Source of the DNA: an uncultured Pelagibacteraceae bacterium
GTDB taxonomy: Bacteria > Pseudomonadota > Alphaproteobacteria > Pelagibacterales > AG-422-B15
Assembly (NCBI GenBank): GCA_902614655.1
Contig: CACMLX010000003.1
Span: 19,554-83,553 of the forward strand
Length of the DNA: 64,000 bases
Direction: 5' to 3'
Part shown: one piece after another, positions 48,857 to 58,989 of the stretch
Position numbering within the stretch: position 1 is the stretch's first letter
Layout: every line of letters begins with the position of its first letter
Notes under the pieces: model-generated
Seen by the model: the letters and a program-made list of their open reading frames with translations, nothing else
Database searches by the model: none
What the model was told of the DNA's origin: nothing
Position numbers and translations under genes: made by a program

Positions 48857-50965
48857 ATGATTGTACCGTCTATCCGACAAGATCTGAAACTCAGTGAGGG
48901 ACCAAAGAAAGAGGACGGTTCAGCGTCGTGGCTTCTTTATGACTCACTAAGAAATAAATACTTTTCAATAAACAAAAAAGCATTTGATCTTCTTAAAAAT
49001 TGGTCAAGTGGAATTGAGACAACAGAATTTATTGAAAAAATTAAAAAAAGCAATCTGTCTATTACACAAGAAGAAATTGAAGAATTTATCAATTTTCTAA
49101 ATCTCAATAATTTAAGTATTAAAAAAACAGGTGATGAAGTTAAATCTTTAGTTGTTCAAAAAGAGAAACTTAATAAGCATTGGCTGTTAAAAATTATTCA
49201 TAATTATTTGTTCTTTAAAATCCCATTATTCAAACCAGGAAATGGTCTTGAAAACAGTTTACCTTTTGCATTGTTTCTTGGATCGCAAACCAGCAGACTC
49301 ATAATCTATACTCTGGGGATCATTGGTATTTTTTTAACAATCCAAAACTATGAAACATTTTTAACAACATTTTCTTATTTCTTTAATGTTAATGGATTGA
49401 TTTTGTTTGGTATAACGATTGTTTTTGTAAAGGCCTTGCACGAACTTGGGCACGCATATGTTGCCACTTATTATAAATGCAAAGTTTCTTCAATTGGTCT
49501 TGCAATGCTGGTTTTTTTCCCCTTCTTGTACACAGATACAACCGATGCTTATAAATTAACTGATCATAGAAAACGCTTACTGATTAATTTTGCAGGCATG
49601 CTGACTGAATTGCATCTTGCCCTGCTTGCTACATTTGTTTGGGCTGTAAGCCCTGAAGGTGTTATAAAAAGTGCCTCATTTTTTATTGCAACTTCAAGCT
49701 GGATATCATCACTTCTTATTAATATTAGTCCGTTTATGAGATTTGACGGATACTATGTGCTCTCAGATTTTCTTAAAGCGGAAAATCTTCAACCGCGCTC
49801 ATTTGCTCTAGGTCGATGGCAGATTAGAGAATGGATCTTTGGATTCAAATTCCAACCACCAGAACAACTCATGAGTCAAAGACGGTGGACTTTTATCATT
49901 TACGCATGGATGACATGGATATATCGCTTCTTCATATTTATTGGAATTGCCTTATTGGTCTATTATTTAACATTTAAAATTCTTGGCATCATTCTGTTCA
50001 TTATTGAGATTGTCTGGTTCATTTTACTACCAATTTGGAGAGAAATTAAACAGTGGTGGGGACTCAGAAGGTACATGCGTTTTAATTGGACTTCTTTGAG
50101 ATCAATTTTCATTTTTTCAGTTTTTTTGGCTGCAATGTTAGTACCATGGCGAAGTTCACTCAGTCTTCCTGCAGTGATTGATCGAGGTGAAGTGGTCGAT
50201 ATATATCCTACAGAAGCCTCTGAGATAAAAGAGATTTTTGTTATCTCAGATCAACAAGTCGAAAAGGGTGACTTATTAATCACAATGATGAGTCCGTCTT
50301 TATCAAATAAAGTTGATAAAGCAATTGAGCGCGTAAAGATGATACAACTAAAACTAGATCGTCGAATTGGATCAGAGGTTGATATGAGTAACCTCATGGT
50401 ATTAGAAAACCAATTAAAAGTAGAATTTGAAATTCTTAAAAGTCTTAAAGAAGAAAATAAAAATCTATCAATTTATGCACCAATGAGTGGGGTAATAAAA
50501 GACCTTAAGTATTTAAATAATGGACAATGGGTGAATATAAAAGAAAAATTATTTTCTATTGTTCAATTCAATGACACTAAAGTTGTTGCATTTATAAGTG
50601 AGAATGACTTGGACAAACTTGAAGGTAATACAAGCGGTTATTTTGTACCAAAAAATAATGAGTTTGATGAATCAGAAGTTGTCTTGGTTTCACAAAATAA
50701 TACATCGACAGAAGAACTTCCTTACTTATCATTAGTATCTACTTTTGGTGGATCAATTGCATCACGCGAAGTTAAGAGAGATGGAAAAGTTGTTTATCGA
50801 CCAGAAGAAGCTTTATACCAATTGAATTTTTCTACAAGTACAGAAGTTGAGACTGTTCAATGGCAAACAGCAGGTAAAGTAAAAATTCAAACTGAAAACT
50901 ATAATATTTTTCAAAATCTATTTAATTTGGTTTCATCAACATTAATTAGAGAAAGTGGATTTTAG
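48857..50965 (+). CDS. Site-2 protease (peptidase M50) fused to a C-terminal HlyD-like periplasmic domain, with an N-terminal PqqD/RRE-like cytoplasmic domain
   Basis: 702 aa. HELGH at nt 49439-49453 and second S2P motif NISPFMRFDG at 49721-49750, both in TM helices. The C-terminal approx 260 aa have lipoyl-like (IYPTEASEIKEIFVISDQQVEKGDLLITM / IYAPMSGVIKDL) and coiled-coil segments. N-terminal WLLYDSLRNKYFSINKKAFDLLKNW...TQEEIEEFINFLNLNNL resembles PqqD/RRE. ATG immediately follows the upstream TAA. Confidence 0.8.
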   Translation: MIVPSIRQDLKLSEGPKKEDGSASWLLYDSLRNKYFSINKKAFDLLKNWSSGIETTEFIEKIKKSNLSITQEEIEEFINFLNLNNLSIKKTGDEVKSLVVQKEKLNKHWLLKIIHNYLFFKIPLFKPGNGLENSLPFALFLGSQTSRLIIYTLGIIGIFLTIQNYETFLTTFSYFFNVNGLILFGITIVFVKALHELGHAYVATYYKCKVSSIGLAMLVFFPFLYTDTTDAYKLTDHRKRLLINFAGMLTELHLALLATFVWAVSPEGVIKSASFFIATSSWISSLLINISPFMRFDGYYVLSDFLKAENLQPRSFALGRWQIREWIFGFKFQPPEQLMSQRRWTFIIYAWMTWIYRFFIFIGIALLVYYLTFKILGIILFIIEIVWFILLPIWREIKQWWGLRRYMRFNWTSLRSIFIFSVFLAAMLVPWRSSLSLPAVIDRGEVVDIYPTEASEIKEIFVISDQQVEKGDLLITMMSPSLSNKVDKAIERVKMIQLKLDRRIGSEVDMSNLMVLENQLKVEFEILKSLKEENKNLSIYAPMSGVIKDLKYLNNGQWVNIKEKLFSIVQFNDTKVVAFISENDLDKLEGNTSGYFVPKNNEFDESEVVLVSQNNTSTEELPYLSLVSTFGGSIASREVKRDGKVVYRPEEALYQLNFSTSTEVETVQWQTAGKVKIQTENYNIFQNLFNLVSSTLIRESGF

Positions 50966-51039
50966 TGGTGCCCCTAGCTGGTTACGCTCCAGCGGCTGAT
51001 CATTACCAATGACCTGCTTTACTATTAAGCGATAGGGGC
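50966..51039 (-). tRNA. tRNA-Thr(GGU)-like gene with a non-canonical elbow (atypical D- and T-loops), encoded CCA
   Basis: Minus strand: GCCCCTA TC GCTT AATAGTA AAGC A GGTCA TTGGTAA TGATC AGCC GCTGG AGCGTAA CCAGC TAGGGGC ACCA. All four stems pair fully (7/4/5/5 bp, one G-U). U8, A14, A21, U33 and G53-C61 are present. The T-loop is AGCGTAA instead of TTCRANY and the D-loop has one G instead of GG. The anticodon is at 51005-51007. Confidence 0.6.
51020..51039. repeat. 20-nt direct repeat copy 1 (5' end of the tRNA-like gene)
   Basis: tactattaagcgataggggc is identical to 56376-56395. Confidence 0.9.
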
Positions 51040-51214
51040 AAAGCATTGATAACAAATAGTAATATCGTTTATACAATGTTGAATTATTTTCTGTGTAGCA
51101 ATAATGTAGCAGTTACACAGACTGCAATTCCTAGCTTTTCTGCAGTATAACACAGTTTTTTCATGATTGGATATGATTTAAGCCATTGATATACATACAT
51201 ACATGAACACCTTA

Positions 51215-51270
51215 CAAAACATATTTAATGCTACTACCTCAAATACTCATTCAGGAAAGTGGATTTTAGT
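51215..51270 (+). pseudogene. Degenerate relic of the 3' end of an M50-HlyD gene (duplicate of 50912-50966)
   Basis: Exact 16-mer gaaagtggattttagt at 50951-50966 and 51255-51270. Upstream, caaaacatatttaat (51215-51229) matches caaaatctatttaat (50912-50926). In the homologous frame the relic reads ...LIQESGF* against ...LIRESGF* in the intact gene. Confidence 0.6.
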
Positions 51271-51886
51271 TTATTTCAAGGCCGCCCTCAGTTTTGAGAA
51301 ACTCAGCAACATTTTCTATACCTTTATTATTCTTCATTTCACAAAAAATATAAGGCATGCCTGATCGGGCAGTTTCAACATCTAATTTCATTTGATCCAA
51401 ATCAACATTTACGTGATTTGCTAAATCGGTTTTATTGATGATTAGTAAATCAGATTTTCTTATTGCTGGCCCACCTTTGCGAGGAATATCACCTCCCATT
51501 CCAACATCAATTACATAGATTGATAAATCTACTAACTCTGGACTAAACGTTGCGGCCAAATTATCTCCACCTGACTCAATTAATAGCAATTGTAAATCAG
51601 GAAATTTTTGTTTCATTTCTTCTACAGCTAAGAGGTTGATCGAAGCATCCTCCCGAATAGCGGTATGAGGGCAACCACCTGTTTCAACGCCTTTAATTCT
51701 CTCAATTGGTAAAACTTGAGCTCTCATTAAATACTCGGCATCTTCTATTGTATAAATATCATTTGATATAACTGCCATTGAAATATTTTTAGATAAATTT
51801 TTGCACAAAGCCTCAGTAAGACTTGTTTTACCTGCACCAACTGGGCCGCCAATACCAATCTTTAAAGGACCTCGAAAATTATTCAC
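51266..51886 (-). CDS. ureG: Urease accessory GTPase UreG
   Basis: 206 aa. P-loop [20 protein letters not shown] and ESGGDNL motifs. Confidence 0.97.
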
Positions 51887-52542
51887 GTGACGTAAATTCT
51901 AGATTTAAGATTTTCGTGTTTCATACTGTAAATATCCGCATAAAACGTAGAACTGCGTAAATCGTCTAAGTTATAGTCTCTCATCGTATTATGAAAACTT
52001 TTCATCATTCCAAGAAATGAAACCATACAATCTTGACCATCTTTCTGACTTAAAGGTATATGTTTAACGCACATATTAATTAAGTTTGAGATGAATGATT
52101 GAATATAAAAATCAACCAAATCATCAAAGGCAATATGAAATTTAATACCTGCTTGAGCAATACAGACTGGGAAAGTGGTCTCATTATCTATTGTATAGCC
52201 CCAACTTTCTGACATAATTTTTCTGAATGCATCTCCCATTTTAAGTGTTTCAAGTTGACGTTCCTTGGATGCGCAGTTTGCAAGTACTAAATCATTTATA
52301 TCAATTCCGCCATAGACAGCCTTGATAAAGATATACTCATTTCTGCATGTTCCTTCATAGAGAATACTCTTGATAAATTCTAATACGTCATTTTTATTTT
52401 TGATAAGCTTATCATCAATTATACCCTCAAGACCATGCGAATATGCGTATGAACCAATAGGAAATGAAGACGAAAACCAAAGATGTAAAATTTGATGAGA
52501 TTTTAAATCTAATAAGTTTTTACTTTTAATGTTTGTGACCAT
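51883..52542 (-). CDS. ureF: Urease accessory protein UreF
   Basis: Track ORF reaches 52590, but ATG 52542 (MVTNIKS...) limits the overlap with ureE to 17 nt. The [21 protein letters not shown] motif is typical of UreF. Confidence 0.85.
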
Positions 52543-52969
52543 GCGTTCTTCCCATACCGTAAGCCCCTCCTTCAGGATTAAATTGTTCAATCACAGATTT
52601 TGTCTGCCCCCCAAGTCTTCTCACCATATTCTCAATTATATGGTCACTTTGTATTAGAATTCTTGTAGCCTCAATCTGACAGGGGATATGTCTATTCCCA
52701 ATATGCCATATTAATTTATTTAAATCTTCTGACTTGATCTCAATTAAGTTTTCTTTTTTTGATTTTATAGTAATTAATTTTCCACTCTCAAGTTTGAACG
52801 CTTGATTACTCACGACTGATCTCATCTCTTCAAGATCAACAAGAAATTCATGACCTTTGTCAGAAACTAATTTTTTGCGTCGCATGAATCTCTCCTCATA
52901 AGATAGCGAAATTGTATCAACCTCTTCAGAGGAATCACAGTTACTTAATATTGAATTACAAATTTCCAT
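52526..52969 (-). CDS. ureE: Urease accessory metallochaperone UreE
   Basis: 147 aa. WHIGNRHIP motif and His-containing tail GRTHGHKH. Position between ureC and ureF. Confidence 0.85.
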   Translation of the reverse strand: MEICNSILSNCDSSEEVDTISLSYEERFMRRKKLVSDKGHEFLVDLEEMRSVVSNQAFKLESGKLITIKSKKENLIEIKSEDLNKLIWHIGNRHIPCQIEATRILIQSDHIIENMVRRLGGQTKSVIEQFNPEGGAYGMGRTHGHKH

Positions 52970-52972
52970 AAG

Positions 52973-54679
52973 TCAGTACATAAAATATCTTTGTGCCATC
53001 GGCAGTTCTTCCGCTGGTTCACATGTTATAATTTCACCATTTGCTCTAACCTCATATGTTTCAGGATTTACATCTATAGTTGGACAAACATCATTTAAAA
53101 CCATATCTTTTTTTGAAATTGACCTTGTATTACTTACCGGCAGCATACTTTTTTGTATATTGAGATGATTAAGGCTGCCTGCCTCCAGAGAACTCTTGCT
53201 GACAAAAGTTACCGATGAGTTTTCAAGCGATCTTCCATAACTTCCAAACATTGGGCGGGTATATACAGGTTGGGGAGTTGGAATCGATGCGTTTGGATCG
53301 CCCATTTGAGCGCAGGCAATACTCCCACCCATTATTACAATCTCAGGCTTAACACCAAAGAAAGCTGGATCCCAGATAACGATATCGGCTCTTTTATTTT
53401 TTTCGAGACTGCCAACATAAGAAGAGATTCCATGAGCAATTGATGGGTTTATTGTATATTTTGCAAGGTAACGTTTAACTCTTAAATTATCATTATCACC
53501 TTGCTCTTCAGATAGTCTTCCTCGTTGCACTTTCATTTTATGAGCTGTTTGCCATGTTCTAATAATAACCTCACCAACGCGTCCCATAGCTTGACTATCA
53601 GATGCGATGATTGAGAAAGCACCCATATCGTGCAGTATGTCCTCAGCAGCCATTGTCTCTCTGCGTATTCTACTCTCAGCAAATGCTACGTCTTCAGGTA
53701 TTGATTTATCAAGGTGATGGCAAACCATCAGCATATCTAAGTGCTCTTCAACAGTGTTAACAGTAAATGGTCGTGTTGGATTAGTTGAGGATGGCAAAAC
53801 ATACGGTTCACCACAAATTTTTATTATATCAGGCGCGTGTCCACCACCAGCACCTTCAGTATGAAATGTATGAATGGTTCTTTTATTAATTGCATTGATT
53901 GTATTTTCCACAAAGCCACTTTCATTGAGTGTATCAGTATGTATCATGACCTGAACGTCGAATTTATCAGCAACATTTAAACAATTATCAATTGCACCAG
54001 GAGTAGAGCCCCAGTCCTCGTGAAGTTTGAGAGCAGCTGCTCCACCAAGAACTTGTTCCTCTAAACCAGAAGGCATCGAAGAATTTCCTTTGCCTGCATA
54101 AGCTAAATTCATCGAGAAAGCATCAGATGATTGAAGCATCCTGCCTATGTGCCATGGCCCAGGTGTGCAAGTAGTTGCTAATGTTCCATGTGCTGGTCCA
54201 GTACCTCCACCCAGCATCGTCGTAATGCCAGAATGTAAGGCGTCATCAATTTGCTGAGGACATATGAAATGTATATGACTATCAAAGCCGCCCGCCGTTA
54301 CAATTTTACCTTCACCTGCAATAACTTCAGTACCTGGACCAATTATAATATCCACACCAGGCTGTGTATCAGGGTTACCAGCTTTTCCAATATGGTCAAT
54401 ATTTCCGTTCTTTAGTCCAATATCTGCTTTAAATATCCCTGTGACATCTAGTATTAGAGCATTAGTAATAACTGTATCTACTGCGCCATCACTTCTTGAA
54501 ACCTGAGATTGTCCCATGCCATCGCGAATAACTTTGCCACCACCAAACTTGACTTCCTCACCATAGACTGTGAGGTCTTTTTCAACCTCTATGAAAAGTT
54601 CAGTATCAGCTAACCTTACTTTATCCCCTGTTGTGGGGCCATACATAGCTGCATAAGATTCTCTTGGAATTTTTTTCAT
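52973..54679 (-). CDS. ureC: Urease alpha subunit
   Basis: 568 aa. Contains [27 protein letters not shown] and GRVGEVI. Confidence 0.97.
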
Positions 54680-54984
54680 TTAATTTTTCCCATGACTTTT
54701 TTATTAAATCCAAATAACTTTTTTAGTCCCTGTATTTCAATAAGTTCAACATCTCTTGTTTGCCCTGGTTCAAACCTTACTGCGGTTCCAGATGAAATGT
54801 TTAGTCTCATACCTATGGCTTTTTTTCTATCGAATTCAAGACTTTCATTTGCTTCGCCAAAGTGATAGTGGCTGCCGACTTGAATTGGCCGATCACCAGT
54901 ATTGGAGACTTTCATTGTCAAACTCACTAAATCTTTATTTAAAATTATATCACTGTCACTTGTAATTATTTCTCCTGGAATCAT
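54676..54984 (-). CDS. ureB: Urease beta subunit
   Basis: 102 aa. Contains MIPGEI...[19 protein letters not shown]. Confidence 0.95.
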
Positions 54985-54991
54985 ATAATTC

Positions 54992-55294
54992 TTACCTTAT
55001 GGGTTTATGCACCGTGACTAACTTTGTTCCATCCGGAAAAGTTGCTTCTGTCTGCACTTCGGCAATCATTTCAGCAACTCCGTCCATACAGTCATCCTTT
55101 TTTAATACATGTGCTGCACTTTCCATTAGTTCAGCTACAGATTTGCCGTCCCTTGCACCTTCAACAACATAATCAGAAATAATTGATACGGCTTCAGGGT
55201 AATTTAGTTTTATACCACGATCTAACCTCTTTCGAGCGACTATTGCAGCTATGCTGACCATCATTTTATCAATTTCTCTTGGAGAAAGCTTCAT
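54992..55294 (-). CDS. ureA: Urease gamma subunit
   Basis: ATG 55294 ([17 protein letters not shown]...) gives the canonical 100 aa. It overlaps the ureD stop as ATGA. The track's longer start at 55306 is unlikely. Confidence 0.95.
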
Positions 55295-56088
55295 GCAGCA
55301 CCCCACATGTAAGGAATTTTATCATTCATCATGATTGATACGATATTTTTTGTAAATTTTTTTAAATAATAGTTATTGGATGAAATACTCCTTATTACTA
55401 TCTTACCATCCCATTCTGAAATACCAGTAGTTACACTTTTTTCATCATGTATATTATCCTTCAATACAGTATAAAATTTATTCATCTCTGAACCGAGTAT
55501 TATTATTGTGTTAACTGCAATATTATCATTAAGCATAAATTTATTTTCCCGCATTCTTTTTATATTATCTTCAAAGCCATTGATTTCAAGGTGAGCAATT
55601 TTATTATCATTAAATATTTTCCATCGATCATAGTAGTAACCTTTTTCAATCGTTTCATTCATTGCTGATCTTCCATAAACAACTGTTTCACAAAAAAATA
55701 AATTTGAATTATTTAAAAGATGGATATCAATTTGACGTCTTAGGTTACAATTATCAAAGAGGATTGTTTCATTTGGTATCCAAAAAAGAGCACTGTTATC
55801 AATGTTGATGGTATATTTAAGTTCAGCCGCGTCTCCATATCCACTATATACCTTCTCAGCAGCCTGACTTGTAGTGAGCATATGTGTATTGTGTAAGTCT
55901 ATATTGGTATTAAACTTATCTCCACTCGTTACACCTCCAGAAGTATTGATTAATACAAGTTGAGACAAATTAGAGTAGGATTGGGGCAGTAAGGCTTTAA
56001 GACACCCTTGCTGATACAATTTTTTAATATCATTATTTATAAACTCTACATCAATTGTACCTAAAGATTTCTGAAGATTTACTTTCAT
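55291..56088 (-). CDS. ureD: Urease accessory protein UreD
   Basis: Position and size fit UreD. The track start at 56115 is a TTG, and the first ATG is 56088 ([16 protein letters not shown]...). The start is uncertain between the two. Confidence 0.8.
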
Positions 56089-56288
56089 GAAATTATCATA
56101 GTGTTTTAATTTCAAGTTGACAAATAATTGTCATTTATTTTTATCATTAAAATTAAAGATACTATTTTGTAATATAAAAATTATATTTAAATTTTTTTTT
56201 GAGGATGTCATTTTGGCAAGTGTAAAGATTTGTATCCTTAATTTTTTTAAGAAAATATTTAGCAGTTAAAAAAATGAAAGGACGAATA

Positions 56289-56384
56289 ATGATCAAGAAA
56301 ATTTTAGTTGTTATGTCATTTTTCTTTTTTAGTATTACTGCGTATGCAGATACTATAAAAGTTGGCATATTACACTACTATTAA
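56289..56384 (+). pseudogene. urtA: 5' remnant of a urea ABC transporter binding-protein gene (urtA-like), truncated after 29 codons
   Basis: Manual translation gives MIKKILVVMSFFFFSITAYADTIKVGILHYY*. A signal peptide is followed by DTIKVGILH, matching my recollection of the conserved UrtA mature N-terminus (IKVGILHSLSGTM). The match ends exactly where the 20-nt repeat begins (56376). Divergent from ureD. Confidence 0.5.
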
Positions 56385-56395
56385 GCGATAGGGGC
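56376..56395. repeat. 20-nt direct repeat copy 2 (isolated copy of the tRNA-like 5' end)
   Basis: tactattaagcgataggggc. Flanks on both sides are unrelated to those of copy 1. Confidence 0.9.
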
Positions 56396-56414: not shown

Positions 56415-58208
56415 CTATAGGTCACCTAATGCTATTCCCTCGCGACGTGGATCAGATCCACCCTCCAAATTATCTCCAATATAAATTGTATTTAATCCTG
56501 AAAAATATCTTTTTATTGTTGTATCATATCCCATAGCTGACAAACTTTCTTCAAGTCTTAAAGCATCCTGTGACTCTTCAATTTCGTATTTACCCCATCG
56601 ATTAATGGCATGTGGGAAAGAAACTGACTGTTGTACATTCATATCCCACTCTATAAGAGAAATTAAGGAGTTTGTTACAAACCCAATAATGTTACTACCT
56701 CCTGGGGATCCGGTTATGTATATTGGCTTTCCATTCTGAAGTACGATGGTAGGCGACATTGAGGACCTAGGACGCTTGCCTGGCTCTAATCTGTTTGAAA
56801 CTAATTTTCCATCAATTTTGTGCTTAAATGAAAAATCAGTAAGTTGATTGTTTAGCAAGAAACCACTTTTAGTGAATAGTCTGGAACCAAACGCGTTTTC
56901 AATTGAAGACGTCATCGATAGAGCATTTCCATATTTATCATATATTGAAATATGTGTTGTTGAATTTAGTTCTAGAGAATTATCATCACTGTAATCATGT
57001 GCAACACTGTCTGACGGATTACCAGGCTCAATTTTTTCTGTTCTTGAGCCCACTTTAATTTTATTTGATCTTAATCTTAAGTATTCATCATCAAGTAAGC
57101 CTGCAACTGGTACATTAACAAAATCACTATCAGCAAGGTATCTATCTCGATCAGCAAAAGCTAGACGACTTGCATCTCCGATCAATTGCCATGATAATGG
57201 GTTTTCATATCCAAGAGATTTTAAATCAAATTGCTCAACCAATTTTAAAGTCTGACCAACAGCTACTCCACCCGAGGATGGAGGCCCCATGCCACAAACT
57301 TCGTAATTTTTATACATTACACATGCAGGCTTTCTCTCGATAACTCTATAGTTTTTAAGATCAGTTTTACTTAGAAATCCAGGATTAATCTTATAATCTT
57401 GAACTGTACTAATAATATCATTTGCAATATTTCCGACATAGAAATCGTCAAGACCTTCATGCGCAATAGTTTGTAGTGTTTGAGCATAACTATTGTTTAC
57501 AACGATCTGTTTATGCAAGAGACCTTGATCGTTTGGAAAAAAATAATTTTTAGTCATTTCTACTTTTTTAAGTCTATCTTCATCACGTTTGATTGATGCC
57601 TCTAATTTTTTTGAAACAGAAAAACCATTTTTTGCAAGTTCGATAGCATCATTAAACAAAATTGACCAATCCATTTGTCCCCACTTATTATGTGCCTCTT
57701 TCATTAACGCAGGTGTTCCAGGTGTCCCAACTGATAGGCCCCCAATTACTGCATCAAAGAACTTCTTAGGATCACCACCAGTATTTTGAAATTGTGTTGT
57801 TTTTGACTTTTGTGGAGCTGTTTCTCTTCCATCTAAAGTGGTTACCATTTTAGTTTTGTTATCAAACCAAACTAGAAAACTGCCACCACCAAGACCAGAT
57901 GACTCGGGTTCAACGAGTCCCAAAACTGCTTGAGCTGCAATCATAGCATCTGCTGCCGTACCACCTAAACTTAAAATCTCAGCTCCTGCTTTTGATGCAT
58001 ATGCATTTGCTGTCACAATCATCCATTCCTTGCCAATAACAGGTTTACCATTTTTTTTAGCCTCAAGTGATTTAGTTATAAATTTAGAATCAAGTTCTAT
58101 TGAAGTGTCATCAAAAATTTCAGGATCAATTAATTCTGAGGAATCTTGAGAATATATATTTTGAGTAAGTAAAATTAGTAAAAAAAATGCAGAGAAAATA
58201 TTCTTCAT
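56415..58208 (-). CDS. ggt: Gamma-glutamyltranspeptidase
   Basis: 597 aa. Signal peptide, autoprocessing/nucleophile site NSTTHISI and C-terminal GGSDPRREG. Confidence 0.95.
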   Translation of the reverse strand: MKNIFSAFFLLILLTQNIYSQDSSELIDPEIFDDTSIELDSKFITKSLEAKKNGKPVIGKEWMIVTANAYASKAGAEILSLGGTAADAMIAAQAVLGLVEPESSGLGGGSFLVWFDNKTKMVTTLDGRETAPQKSKTTQFQNTGGDPKKFFDAVIGGLSVGTPGTPALMKEAHNKWGQMDWSILFNDAIELAKNGFSVSKKLEASIKRDEDRLKKVEMTKNYFFPNDQGLLHKQIVVNNSYAQTLQTIAHEGLDDFYVGNIANDIISTVQDYKINPGFLSKTDLKNYRVIERKPACVMYKNYEVCGMGPPSSGGVAVGQTLKLVEQFDLKSLGYENPLSWQLIGDASRLAFADRDRYLADSDFVNVPVAGLLDDEYLRLRSNKIKVGSRTEKIEPGNPSDSVAHDYSDDNSLELNSTTHISIYDKYGNALSMTSSIENAFGSRLFTKSGFLLNNQLTDFSFKHKIDGKLVSNRLEPGKRPRSSMSPTIVLQNGKPIYITGSPGGSNIIGFVTNSLISLIEWDMNVQQSVSFPHAINRWGKYEIEESQDALRLEESLSAMGYDTTIKRYFSGLNTIYIGDNLEGGSDPRREGIALGDL

Positions 58209-58227: not shown

Positions 58228-58989
58228 TTAATTTTTTACTCCATAGCCTTTTGAAATCACTATTGCTACGCCAATAATACAGGTTAGTAAAAAAGCAACA
58301 AGTGATATGACACTTATTAAAATACTTATATCCGATGAACCATAAAACGACCAACGCATGCCATTGATAAGATAAACAACTGGATTAAAATATGAAACTT
58401 TTTGCCAAAACTCAGGCAGCATTTCAATCGTGTAAAGACTTCCGCCTAAAAATACTAATGGGGTAATAATTATCAAAGGTACAACTTGAAGTTGTTCAAA
58501 ATTATTACTCAACAATCCAATAAGAAAGCCAAATAAACTAAATGTGAGGCACGTCAGAACAAGTAAGAAGAACATTAAAAAAGGATATTGAATTTTTAGT
58601 TCAACGAAGAAACTAGCAGTGAGCAAAATGATTATACCAACAATAAGTGATTTAGATGCACTGGCCCCAACAAATCCAATAATGATTTCAAGTGAAGAAA
58701 TTGGTGCAGCTAATACCTCATAGATTGAACCTGTAAACTTTGGGAAAAATATTCCAAAAGCTGAGTTTGATATACTTTGTGTTAAAAGCGTTAGCATTAG
58801 CAAGCCAGGTACAATAAAGGAACCATAGCTCACCCCGTCTAATTCTGGAATCATGCCCCCAATAACAGACCCAAAAACAATAAAATATAAAGACGTTGAG
58901 ATAACGGGCGAGAGAATACTTTGACCAATTGTCCTTCGCATTCTATCCATTTCGTGAAGATAGATAGCTCTGATAGCATAAAAATTCAT
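58228..58989 (-). CDS. ABC-2 type exporter permease
   Basis: 253 aa. 6 TM ABC-2 pattern. 1-nt overlap with the ATPase gene. Confidence 0.85.
   Translation of the reverse strand: MNFYAIRAIYLHEMDRMRRTIGQSILSPVISTSLYFIVFGSVIGGMIPELDGVSYGSFIVPGLLMLTLLTQSISNSAFGIFFPKFTGSIYEVLAAPISSLEIIIGFVGASASKSLIVGIIILLTASFFVELKIQYPFLMFFLLVLTCLTFSLFGFLIGLLSNNFEQLQVVPLIIITPLVFLGGSLYTIEMLPEFWQKVSYFNPVVYLINGMRWSFYGSSDISILISVISLVAFLLTCIIGVAIVISKGYGVKN

Follow-up and report, generated by a model that had tools for sequence, protein, structure and literature searches.

At positions 50966-51039 on the minus strand of the window (the whole 64,000-nt stretch of DNA analysed here, from an uncultured Pelagibacteraceae bacterium) lies a 74-nt tRNA-Thr(GGU) gene with an encoded CCA, recognised from Rfam family RF00005, its cloverleaf fold, its identity in congeners and the covariation of its stems. 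On its right-hand side the backbone continues with a convergent gene for a 702-aa M50 peptidase/HlyD fusion (48857-50965, plus strand; Pfam), which is syntenic in most type-1 loci. The two genes touch, with the terminal A of the CCA (50966) next to the G of the TAG stop codon (50963-50965), as an earlier, sequence-only reading of this DNA had pointed out. On the other side, a 226-nt spacer (51040-51265, minus strand) separates nt 1 of the tRNA from the ureG stop codon, which closes a ureD-A-B-C-E-F-G operon on the same strand (51266-56115; Pfam UreD, Urease_gamma, Urease_beta, Urease_alpha, UreE, UreF and cobW/UreG). The distal border of the urease insertion is marked by an exact direct repeat of tRNA nt 1-20 (56376-56395, minus strand), after which the left-hand backbone resumes with genes for a gamma-glutamyltranspeptidase (56415-58208) and an ABC-2 permease (58228-58989), both on the minus strand and assigned by Pfam and synteny. 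Antisense to the ureB/ureC junction there is an Rfam match to the "5' ureB sRNA" (RF02514, 102 bits; 54241-54526, plus strand), which may simply reflect the conservation of the urease coding sequence and not an antisense RNA.

Neither a consensus promoter for the tRNA strand nor a terminator for either strand is seen in the spacer, and a search of this genome found no sigma-70-like promoter on the tRNA strand within about 310 nt upstream of the gene. The tRNA and the spacer are covered by contigs from four seawater metatranscriptome runs, for which DNA carry-over is possible and which do not show ends, strand or level. One metatranscriptome contig joins the tRNA to the type of flank found in an island-free relative.

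The cloverleaf has an acceptor stem of 7 bp, a D-stem of 4 bp, and anticodon and T-stems of 5 bp each. All 21 pairs form, one of them as a G28-U42 wobble, and the single-sequence fold is the cloverleaf itself (-27.8 kcal/mol, z = -3.07, equalled by none of 200 shuffles). The anticodon GGU (51005-51007) sits within a 7-nt loop, UUGGUAA (51009-51003), which is invariant among 15 aligned variants. As in other elongator tRNAs of RF00005, U33 and a purine at position 37 (A37) are present, together with U8, A14, A21, the G53-C61 pair, the discriminator A (50969) and the encoded CCA (50968-50966). Full pairing of the stems and retention of the core nucleotides U8, A14, A21, U33, G53-C61 and ACCA had both been read correctly from the letters. 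Scoring with a covariance model, a check that had been proposed at the same time, gives 50.9 bits with RF00005 (gathering score 29, E = 5.7e-08, model positions 1-71). It ranks last among the 27 Rfam tRNA matches in the genome, and ARAGORN, run over the window, reports no tRNA at all. Since ARAGORN does find a Pelagibacter tRNA-Val with the same T-loop, the miss is read as a limitation of the tool.

It is in the elbow that the molecule is unusual. On the minus strand the T-loop (50982-50988) reads A54 G55 C56 G57 U58 A59 A60, exactly as first described, and the D-loop (51020-51026), when aligned to the Rfam model, reads A14 A15 U16 A18 G19 U20 A21. Thus the near-universal G18, T54, Psi55 and A58 are replaced by A18, A54, G55 and U58. 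The D-loop had been said to lack both G18 and G19, and only half of this holds: G18 is lost, while the Rfam alignment puts the lone G at position 19, so that G19 can still pair with C56. The D-loop has 7 nt, the variable loop is AGCC (4 nt), and the Levitt pair is a non-standard A15:C48. In the host genome (1.08 Mb in 26 contigs, 33% G+C, 83% complete), all 26 remaining tRNAs have GG D-loops and UUCRA T-loops, which leaves Thr-GGU as the sole deviant.

Conservation and probable threonine decoding

Among other species of the genus, 24 match the whole 74 nt at 100% identity, one matches at 95% and another at 86%, while the DNA flanking the gene on either side differs among those same genomes. 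A database-wide pattern scan combined with model searches yields 15 distinct variants, in which 99.7% of the cells of the alignment are paired and 14 of the 21 pairs are altered on both sides. Compensatory changes occur in all four stems, and both the D-loop and the T-loop are invariant within the family. None of 500 shuffles attains the paired percentage, the count of doubly changed cells or the covariation score of the real alignment. In a control with slid partners, pairing falls to 31-44%. Covariation in relatives, which had been named as a check, is thus found in the stems, with the loops fixed. Selection spans the entire cloverleaf and is not confined to nt 1-38; it is seen in the 3' half and in the anticodon loop, in the Thr identity pairs and at the ACCA end. 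Matches to the Thr-specific pattern outside SAR11 (in Flavobacterium, Pseudolabrys, Alistipes and others) were rejected as chance hits that are not tRNA-shaped.

A second Thr-GGU variant combines the same two loops with different stems. It occurs at three loci (L283-L285, in G178, G362 and G492) and about 25 more, is 100% identical over many genomes of "uncultured Alphaproteobacteria" that belong to a different order (1.4-1.6 Mb, about 30% G+C), and stands in a non-syntenic context. Its loops, and its identity across another order, point to shared ancestry or transfer with SAR11.

The rest of the tRNA set bears on what this tRNA would do. The 27 Rfam matches include a canonical Thr-UGU, and the Rfam tRNA search finds no second Thr-GGU gene in this 83% complete genome. 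In two members of the same genus, G061 (100% complete) and G023 (99%), a model built from the variant sequences of the Thr-GGU family finds only this Thr-GGU and a canonical Thr-UGU. The same model gives 55-61 bits to canonical Thr-GGU genes (76 nt) from other genera of SAR11, and therefore one in G061 or G023 would have been detected. The canonical Thr-GGU tRNA that it had been suggested to look for is found in none of these three genomes. Neither is the arrangement typical of cell-wall tRNAs, an extra isoacceptor beside the canonical one, seen in G000, G061 or G023.

The identity set of Escherichia coli ThrRS consists of G1-C72, C2-G71, G35 and U36. This set is present here, with G1, G35 and U36 invariant and C2-G71 found in 14 of the 15 variants. 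The codons ACU (37.3%) and ACC (9.5%) together make up 46.8% of Thr codons in 596 ORFs of at least 250 codons, and it is these two that the Thr-GGU tRNA would decode. The four ACN codons might in principle all be read by a single tRNA-Thr(UGU), which leaves strict essentiality of the Thr-GGU tRNA unproven. The genome also encodes a two-piece (permuted) tmRNA (contig C11:12164-12471), whose tag, ANDELALAA, is presumably the one to be expected for Alphaproteobacteria.

The elbow in SAR11 and viral tRNAs

Several elbow alleles of Thr-GGU exist within SAR11. Other SAR11 genera have the canonical 76-nt gene, and in many Pelagibacter-type species the gene has 74 nt and a canonical T-loop. The form with A18 and AGCGUAA is found in most of this genus and in its two sister genera. 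Many other Pelagibacter-type species, and at least five of this genus, have the T-loop GUCAGUA (G54:G58, with G18:U55), accompanied by the D-loop AAUGGUA or, in one case, AAUGGAA, and one species has the T-loop AUCAUUA (A54:U58 with U55). Matches of 84.8 bits in some congeners were considered as a "type 2" variant and rejected, as they are this third allele with T-loop GUCAGUA. In three genomes (G064, G070 and G016) the GUCAGUA allele has a gamma-glutamyltranspeptidase gene upstream and a prolyl oligopeptidase gene downstream, and these are also the neighbours of the AGCGUAA allele in other species. It follows that entire alleles were exchanged at one locus.

The loop pair is not restricted to threonine. 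In a Pelagibacter-type genus, tRNA-Val(GAC) has a D-loop and a T-loop identical to those of Thr-GGU. Among 401 alphaproteobacterial genomes, the loop-pair pattern matches in SAR11-type genomes only, and the matches are this Thr-GGU, tRNA-Val(GAC), tRNA-His(GUG) and the Thr-GGU of a family in another order. All 32 tRNAs were read in G039, a 99% complete Pelagibacter-type genome. Its sole tRNA-His(GUG) has the full AAUAGUA/AGCGUAA module and is missed by ARAGORN, its tRNA-Val(GAC) carries the module as well, and its sole tRNA-Phe(GAA) shows the A18:G55 swap together with U54:A58 (D-loop AGGAGUA, T-loop UGCGAAU). These alternative-elbow genes lie at loci L297, L290 and L295 of G039, and further ones at L155 and L156 in G058 and G054. 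His and Phe codons must be decoded, and hence the elbow has to be compatible with charging, EF-Tu and the ribosome. To judge from these sequences, the alternative elbow is recurrent and works in ordinary translation.

TruB is the Psi55 synthase. Its domain (PF01509) is found in this genus and in one other SAR11 genus (G061, G023 and G037), as well as in 14 of 14 control genomes, and has no match in the two complete Pelagibacter-type genomes, G039 and G058. A TrmA-type enzyme (PF05958) has no match in any of these five genomes.

The same module is present in at least 120 IMG/VR viral contigs, with 20 anticodons and a contig G+C content of 27-61%. A cloverleaf scan of 120 viral loci (1.12 Mb) gives 714 distinct tRNAs, with about one false positive expected, and 639 of them remain for covariation after removal of those that match the selecting pattern. 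In this set, positions 18:55 are G:U in 376 tRNAs and A:G in 142, and mixed in only 14 (A:U 9, G:G 5). Positions 54:58 are U:A in 506, A:U in 68, G:G in 35 and A:A in 15, and never U:U. The Fisher p values of about 1e-110 (18:55) and 1e-74 (54:58) are inflated by the relatedness of the tRNAs, and the covariation pattern of both pairs across phage tRNAs is unambiguous. The 19:56 pair is G:C in 622 of the 714 distinct tRNAs. The G55 class is of compact build: most of its members combine a D-loop of 7 nt with a variable loop of 4 nt, and A15:C48 and A60 are often present.

Some of the viral contigs with the module encode phage RNA or DNA ligases. In one of them a T4-type RNA ligase is encoded near an alternative-elbow tRNA-Lys (L182:6569-7729), which hints at tRNA repair or at a conflict with host tRNA nucleases. 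A blastn search of GenBank phages with this tRNA and three viral alternative-elbow tRNAs gives no match, so that no cultured phage could be named. Literature searches on the loop strings, on A18/G55 and A54/U58, on the Pelagibacter T-loop and on phage tRNA elbows retrieve no description of this elbow, which is not proof of novelty.

Insertions at the tRNA gene

Comparison with relatives reveals a second role for the gene, as a hot spot of insertion. The simplest form of the locus, in G018 and G015, consists of an ABC ATPase, an ABC-2 permease, 10 nt, the tRNA and the convergent M50/HlyD gene; these are empty sites. At six places in relatives (G003, G013 with two, G032, G036 and L093), an exact direct copy of tRNA nt 1-38 lies upstream of the tRNA, and the order is always the nt 1-38 copy, then 2.6-11.5 kb of cargo, then the full tRNA. 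This segment, the putative attachment core (51002-51039, minus strand, in the window), reaches 1 nt beyond the anticodon loop. It is the only part of the tRNA to be duplicated in this way, the remaining exact fragments being just 11-12 nt long. The cargo varies from locus to locus: the urea-transporter genes urtABCDE together with ureDABCEFG, a PLD/SNF2 helicase together with an Eco57I/MmeI-type restriction-modification enzyme, a CHAT protease together with a ResIII helicase, and T5orf172 and DUF4116 proteins.

From one cargo to another, two arms are kept, a left one of about 120 nt that follows the remnant and a right one of about 110 nt that precedes the tRNA. The left arm is common to G003, G013, G032, G036 and L093, and the right arm to G013, G032, G036, L093 and G028. 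In G013 there are two tandem cassettes, and each has both arms. In left and right arms alike (L112, L114, L115 and L093), there is a motif that resembles ATGTCCCGTGA, at a distance of about 60-115 nt from the attachment core, and such motifs may be protein-binding arm sites. Two small proteins of about 232 and 196 aa are common to two cassettes with otherwise different cargo, where they are encoded beside the attachment end (L115:6220-7555 and L112:11916-13225). Neither has a Pfam match and the 232-aa one has no PHROG match; they are candidates for cassette-specific functions.

Pfam scans of the cassette cargo find no integrase or recombinase. In five genomes, tyrosine recombinases (PF00589) are represented by only two Xer-like (XerC/XerD-like) genes on other contigs, with nothing near the tRNA, and serine recombinases (PF00239) have no match. 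Since no recombinase was found in the cassettes, it is from the scars that we infer site-specific integration. A search of IMG/VR with the 34-nt 5' half of the tRNA has no match either, and thus no phage with the attachment core was found.

The urease operon of the window sits between the 20-nt repeat and the tRNA, and is absent from this site in G018, G015 and G030. The repeat adjoins the gamma-glutamyltranspeptidase gene at its end, in the very position that the full tRNA has in G030 and G009. Directly next to the ureG stop codon lies a 29-nt relic of the M50/HlyD gene that corresponds to its 3' end with the TAG (51242-51270, plus strand, 79% identical to 50938-50966). The tRNA and about 200 nt are therefore bracketed by two copies of that gene end. 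The spacer upstream of the tRNA is also found in G002 and G003. The borders of the urease island are thus atypical here, with a 20-nt repeat, the conserved arms absent and the M50/HlyD relic, and the history of the island probably includes further recombination. A long-read study describes a deletion variant in a Pelagibacterales MAG that includes a urease-associated RNA (PMC12379486), which fits a presence/absence polymorphism of the urease cluster.

A probable decoding tRNA and attachment site, and its known relatives

Very probably, the gene encodes a working tRNA-Thr(GGU) with an alternative elbow in a SAR11 bacterium of the AG-422-B15 type (Pelagibacterales), and doubles as an attachment site. 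In such a tRNA, presumed to be expressed and aminoacylated, A18:G55 would take the place of the G18:Psi55 contact, and A54:U58 that of the T54:A58 reverse-Hoogsteen pair. The outer G19-C56 pair would be kept as the face on which the ribosomal L1 stalk and RNase P stack, and the new contacts would sit in a compact frame made of the 7-nt D-loop and the 4-nt variable loop. We infer this three-dimensional geometry from covariation only. As for the second role, nt 1-38 (through the anticodon loop) would be the attachment core, at which cargo cassettes that have conserved arms but lack a recombinase gene enter upstream of the tRNA, at times in tandem; here the site would be occupied by the urease operon. 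Because the duplicated part is the 5' portion, the incoming DNA would supply the first 38 nt of the tRNA together with its upstream region.

The sequence-only reading had proposed a functional RNA with a jointly altered core, and this is now borne out by the conservation and stem covariation, by the status of the tRNA as sole isoacceptor and by the covariation of 18:55 and 54:58 in phage tRNAs. The latter also agrees with its view that T54-A58 had been swapped to A54-U58. Among the roles that it had offered, that of a tRNA-like recombination target gains support as a second role, from the nt 1-38 copies, the empty sites, the arms and the tandem array. A specialised tRNA is not needed to explain the elbow, as the module is found in the sole tRNA-His of a Pelagibacter genome and A18:G55 in its sole tRNA-Phe.

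Could the element be kept mainly as a recombination target, or for some other non-ribosomal role, with tRNA-Thr(UGU) alone reading ACN codons? The 5' 38 nt do act as an attachment core, ARAGORN rejects the gene and no promoter is detected. Moreover, the elbow lacks T54 and Psi55, as does that of the cell-wall tRNA-Gly of staphylococci. However, selection acts on the whole cloverleaf and not just on nt 1-38, near-complete congeners have no second GGU tRNA, and the Pelagibacter tRNAs for His and Phe, each the only one of its kind, must serve the ribosome with this elbow or with its A18:G55. Such a limited role is accordingly improbable. It is more improbable still that the element is the 3' tRNA-like end of a urease transcript, a processing or stabilising element and not a decoder. 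It does share its strand with ureG, which ends 226 nt upstream, neither terminator nor promoter is detected between the two, and contigs from RNA libraries tile the spacer, but in most relatives the gene upstream encodes an ABC-2 permease or a gamma-glutamyltranspeptidase, with no urease nearby, and the tRNA sequence is independent of the upstream cargo. The suggestion of a 3' structure on a longer transcript is thus abandoned. A tRNA pseudogene decaying beside the island would explain the lowest tRNA score in the genome, the change of four near-universal elbow bases and the adjacent mobile DNA. Yet identity is complete in 24 species while the neighbouring intergenic DNA varies, compensatory changes occur in all four stems, and the identical loop pair is found in unrelated SAR11 and phage tRNAs. 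The decay that would have undone the functional reading is contradicted by a model score above threshold, by the lack of another Thr-GGU and by the strong conservation; identity, compensated stems and sole GGU status exclude it, and we give it next to no credence.

Around the working tRNA-Thr(GGU) with its double role, a broader proposal can be made, although we consider it rather unlikely. A18:G55/A54:U58 would define a distinct, undescribed structural class of tRNA that circulates between uncultivated phages and streamlined marine bacteria, with SAR11 having repeatedly swapped canonical alleles for it at recombination hot spots, and with the Thr-GGU gene as both a product and a vehicle of this exchange. 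Such a class may persist by escaping nucleases, toxins or modification-dependent quality control directed at T54 and Psi55, and the apparent absence of TruB from two Pelagibacter-type genomes would fit an escape from the canonical readers of the T-loop.

One of the ocean's most abundant groups of bacteria replaces all four "universal" elbow bases in a coordinated manner, even in the only tRNA-His of Pelagibacter, and the same solution is common in phage tRNAs. This provides a natural alternative elbow, defined by covariation, which matters for the way in which RNase P, the L1 stalk, TruB and the CCA-adding enzyme recognise this part of the molecule. ARAGORN misses Thr here and His in a Pelagibacter genome, which can distort the tRNA counts used to grade genome quality. 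Finally, the hot spot shows a route by which genes for urea utilisation and defence are gained and lost in SAR11 without obvious mobile-element machinery.

Canonical tRNA-Thr(GGU), exemplified by the 76-nt genes found in other genera of SAR11 and by the thrV-type genes of E. coli, has the same cloverleaf, anticodon loop (UUGGUAA), G1-C72 and C2-G71 pairs, discriminator A and encoded CCA, and the same U8, A14, A21, G19, C56 and G53-C61. What differs here is A18 in place of G18, A54, G55 and U58 in place of T54, Psi55 and A58, A60 in place of a pyrimidine, the 7-nt D-loop, the 4-nt variable loop and A15:C48. G18, U54, U55 and A58 are presented as conserved in reviews of the elbow (PMC4810234) and of the T-loop (PMC7912444), and the loops are not mentioned in a study of SAR11 tRNAs (PMC3937112). 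For cytoplasmic tRNAs, the sole exception to U54 that is named is the A54:A58 of eukaryotic initiator tRNA-Met, a purine-purine Hoogsteen pair showing that 54:58 can be rebuilt (PMC7912444). However, that initiator is specialised and keeps Psi55, A58 and G18, whereas the tRNA described here is an elongator with G55, U58 and A18. Metazoan mitochondrial tRNAs also depart from the universal contacts between D-loop and T-loop, but they lose the elbow, and their partners (the L1 region and RNase P) have co-evolved (PMC4810234, PMC7912444). The tRNA described here, in contrast, retains the G19-C56 platform and its two 7-nt loops, and belongs to a free-living bacterium in which the 26 other tRNAs detected are all canonical.

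The insertions resemble the tycheposons and islands of Prochlorococcus, which are seeded at tRNA genes including tRNA-Thr(GGU) (bioRxiv 10.1101/2020.12.28.424599). Both have a streamlined marine host, nutrient-acquisition cargo, partial tRNA copies between elements, tandem accretion beside a full tRNA and empty sites in relatives. A tycheposon encodes a tyrosine (or small serine) recombinase of its own, whereas the SAR11 cassettes examined have no recombinase gene; these cassettes also duplicate the 5' portion of the tRNA and hence lie upstream of the gene. They come close to the anticodon-loop class of tRNA integration sites reportedly distinguished by Williams in 2002, since the segment of identity ends at the anticodon loop, a loop flanked by the symmetric anticodon stem. 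In the usual case of that class, the 3' portion of the tRNA comes from the element and the promoter stays in place, whereas here nt 1-38 and the upstream DNA would come from it.
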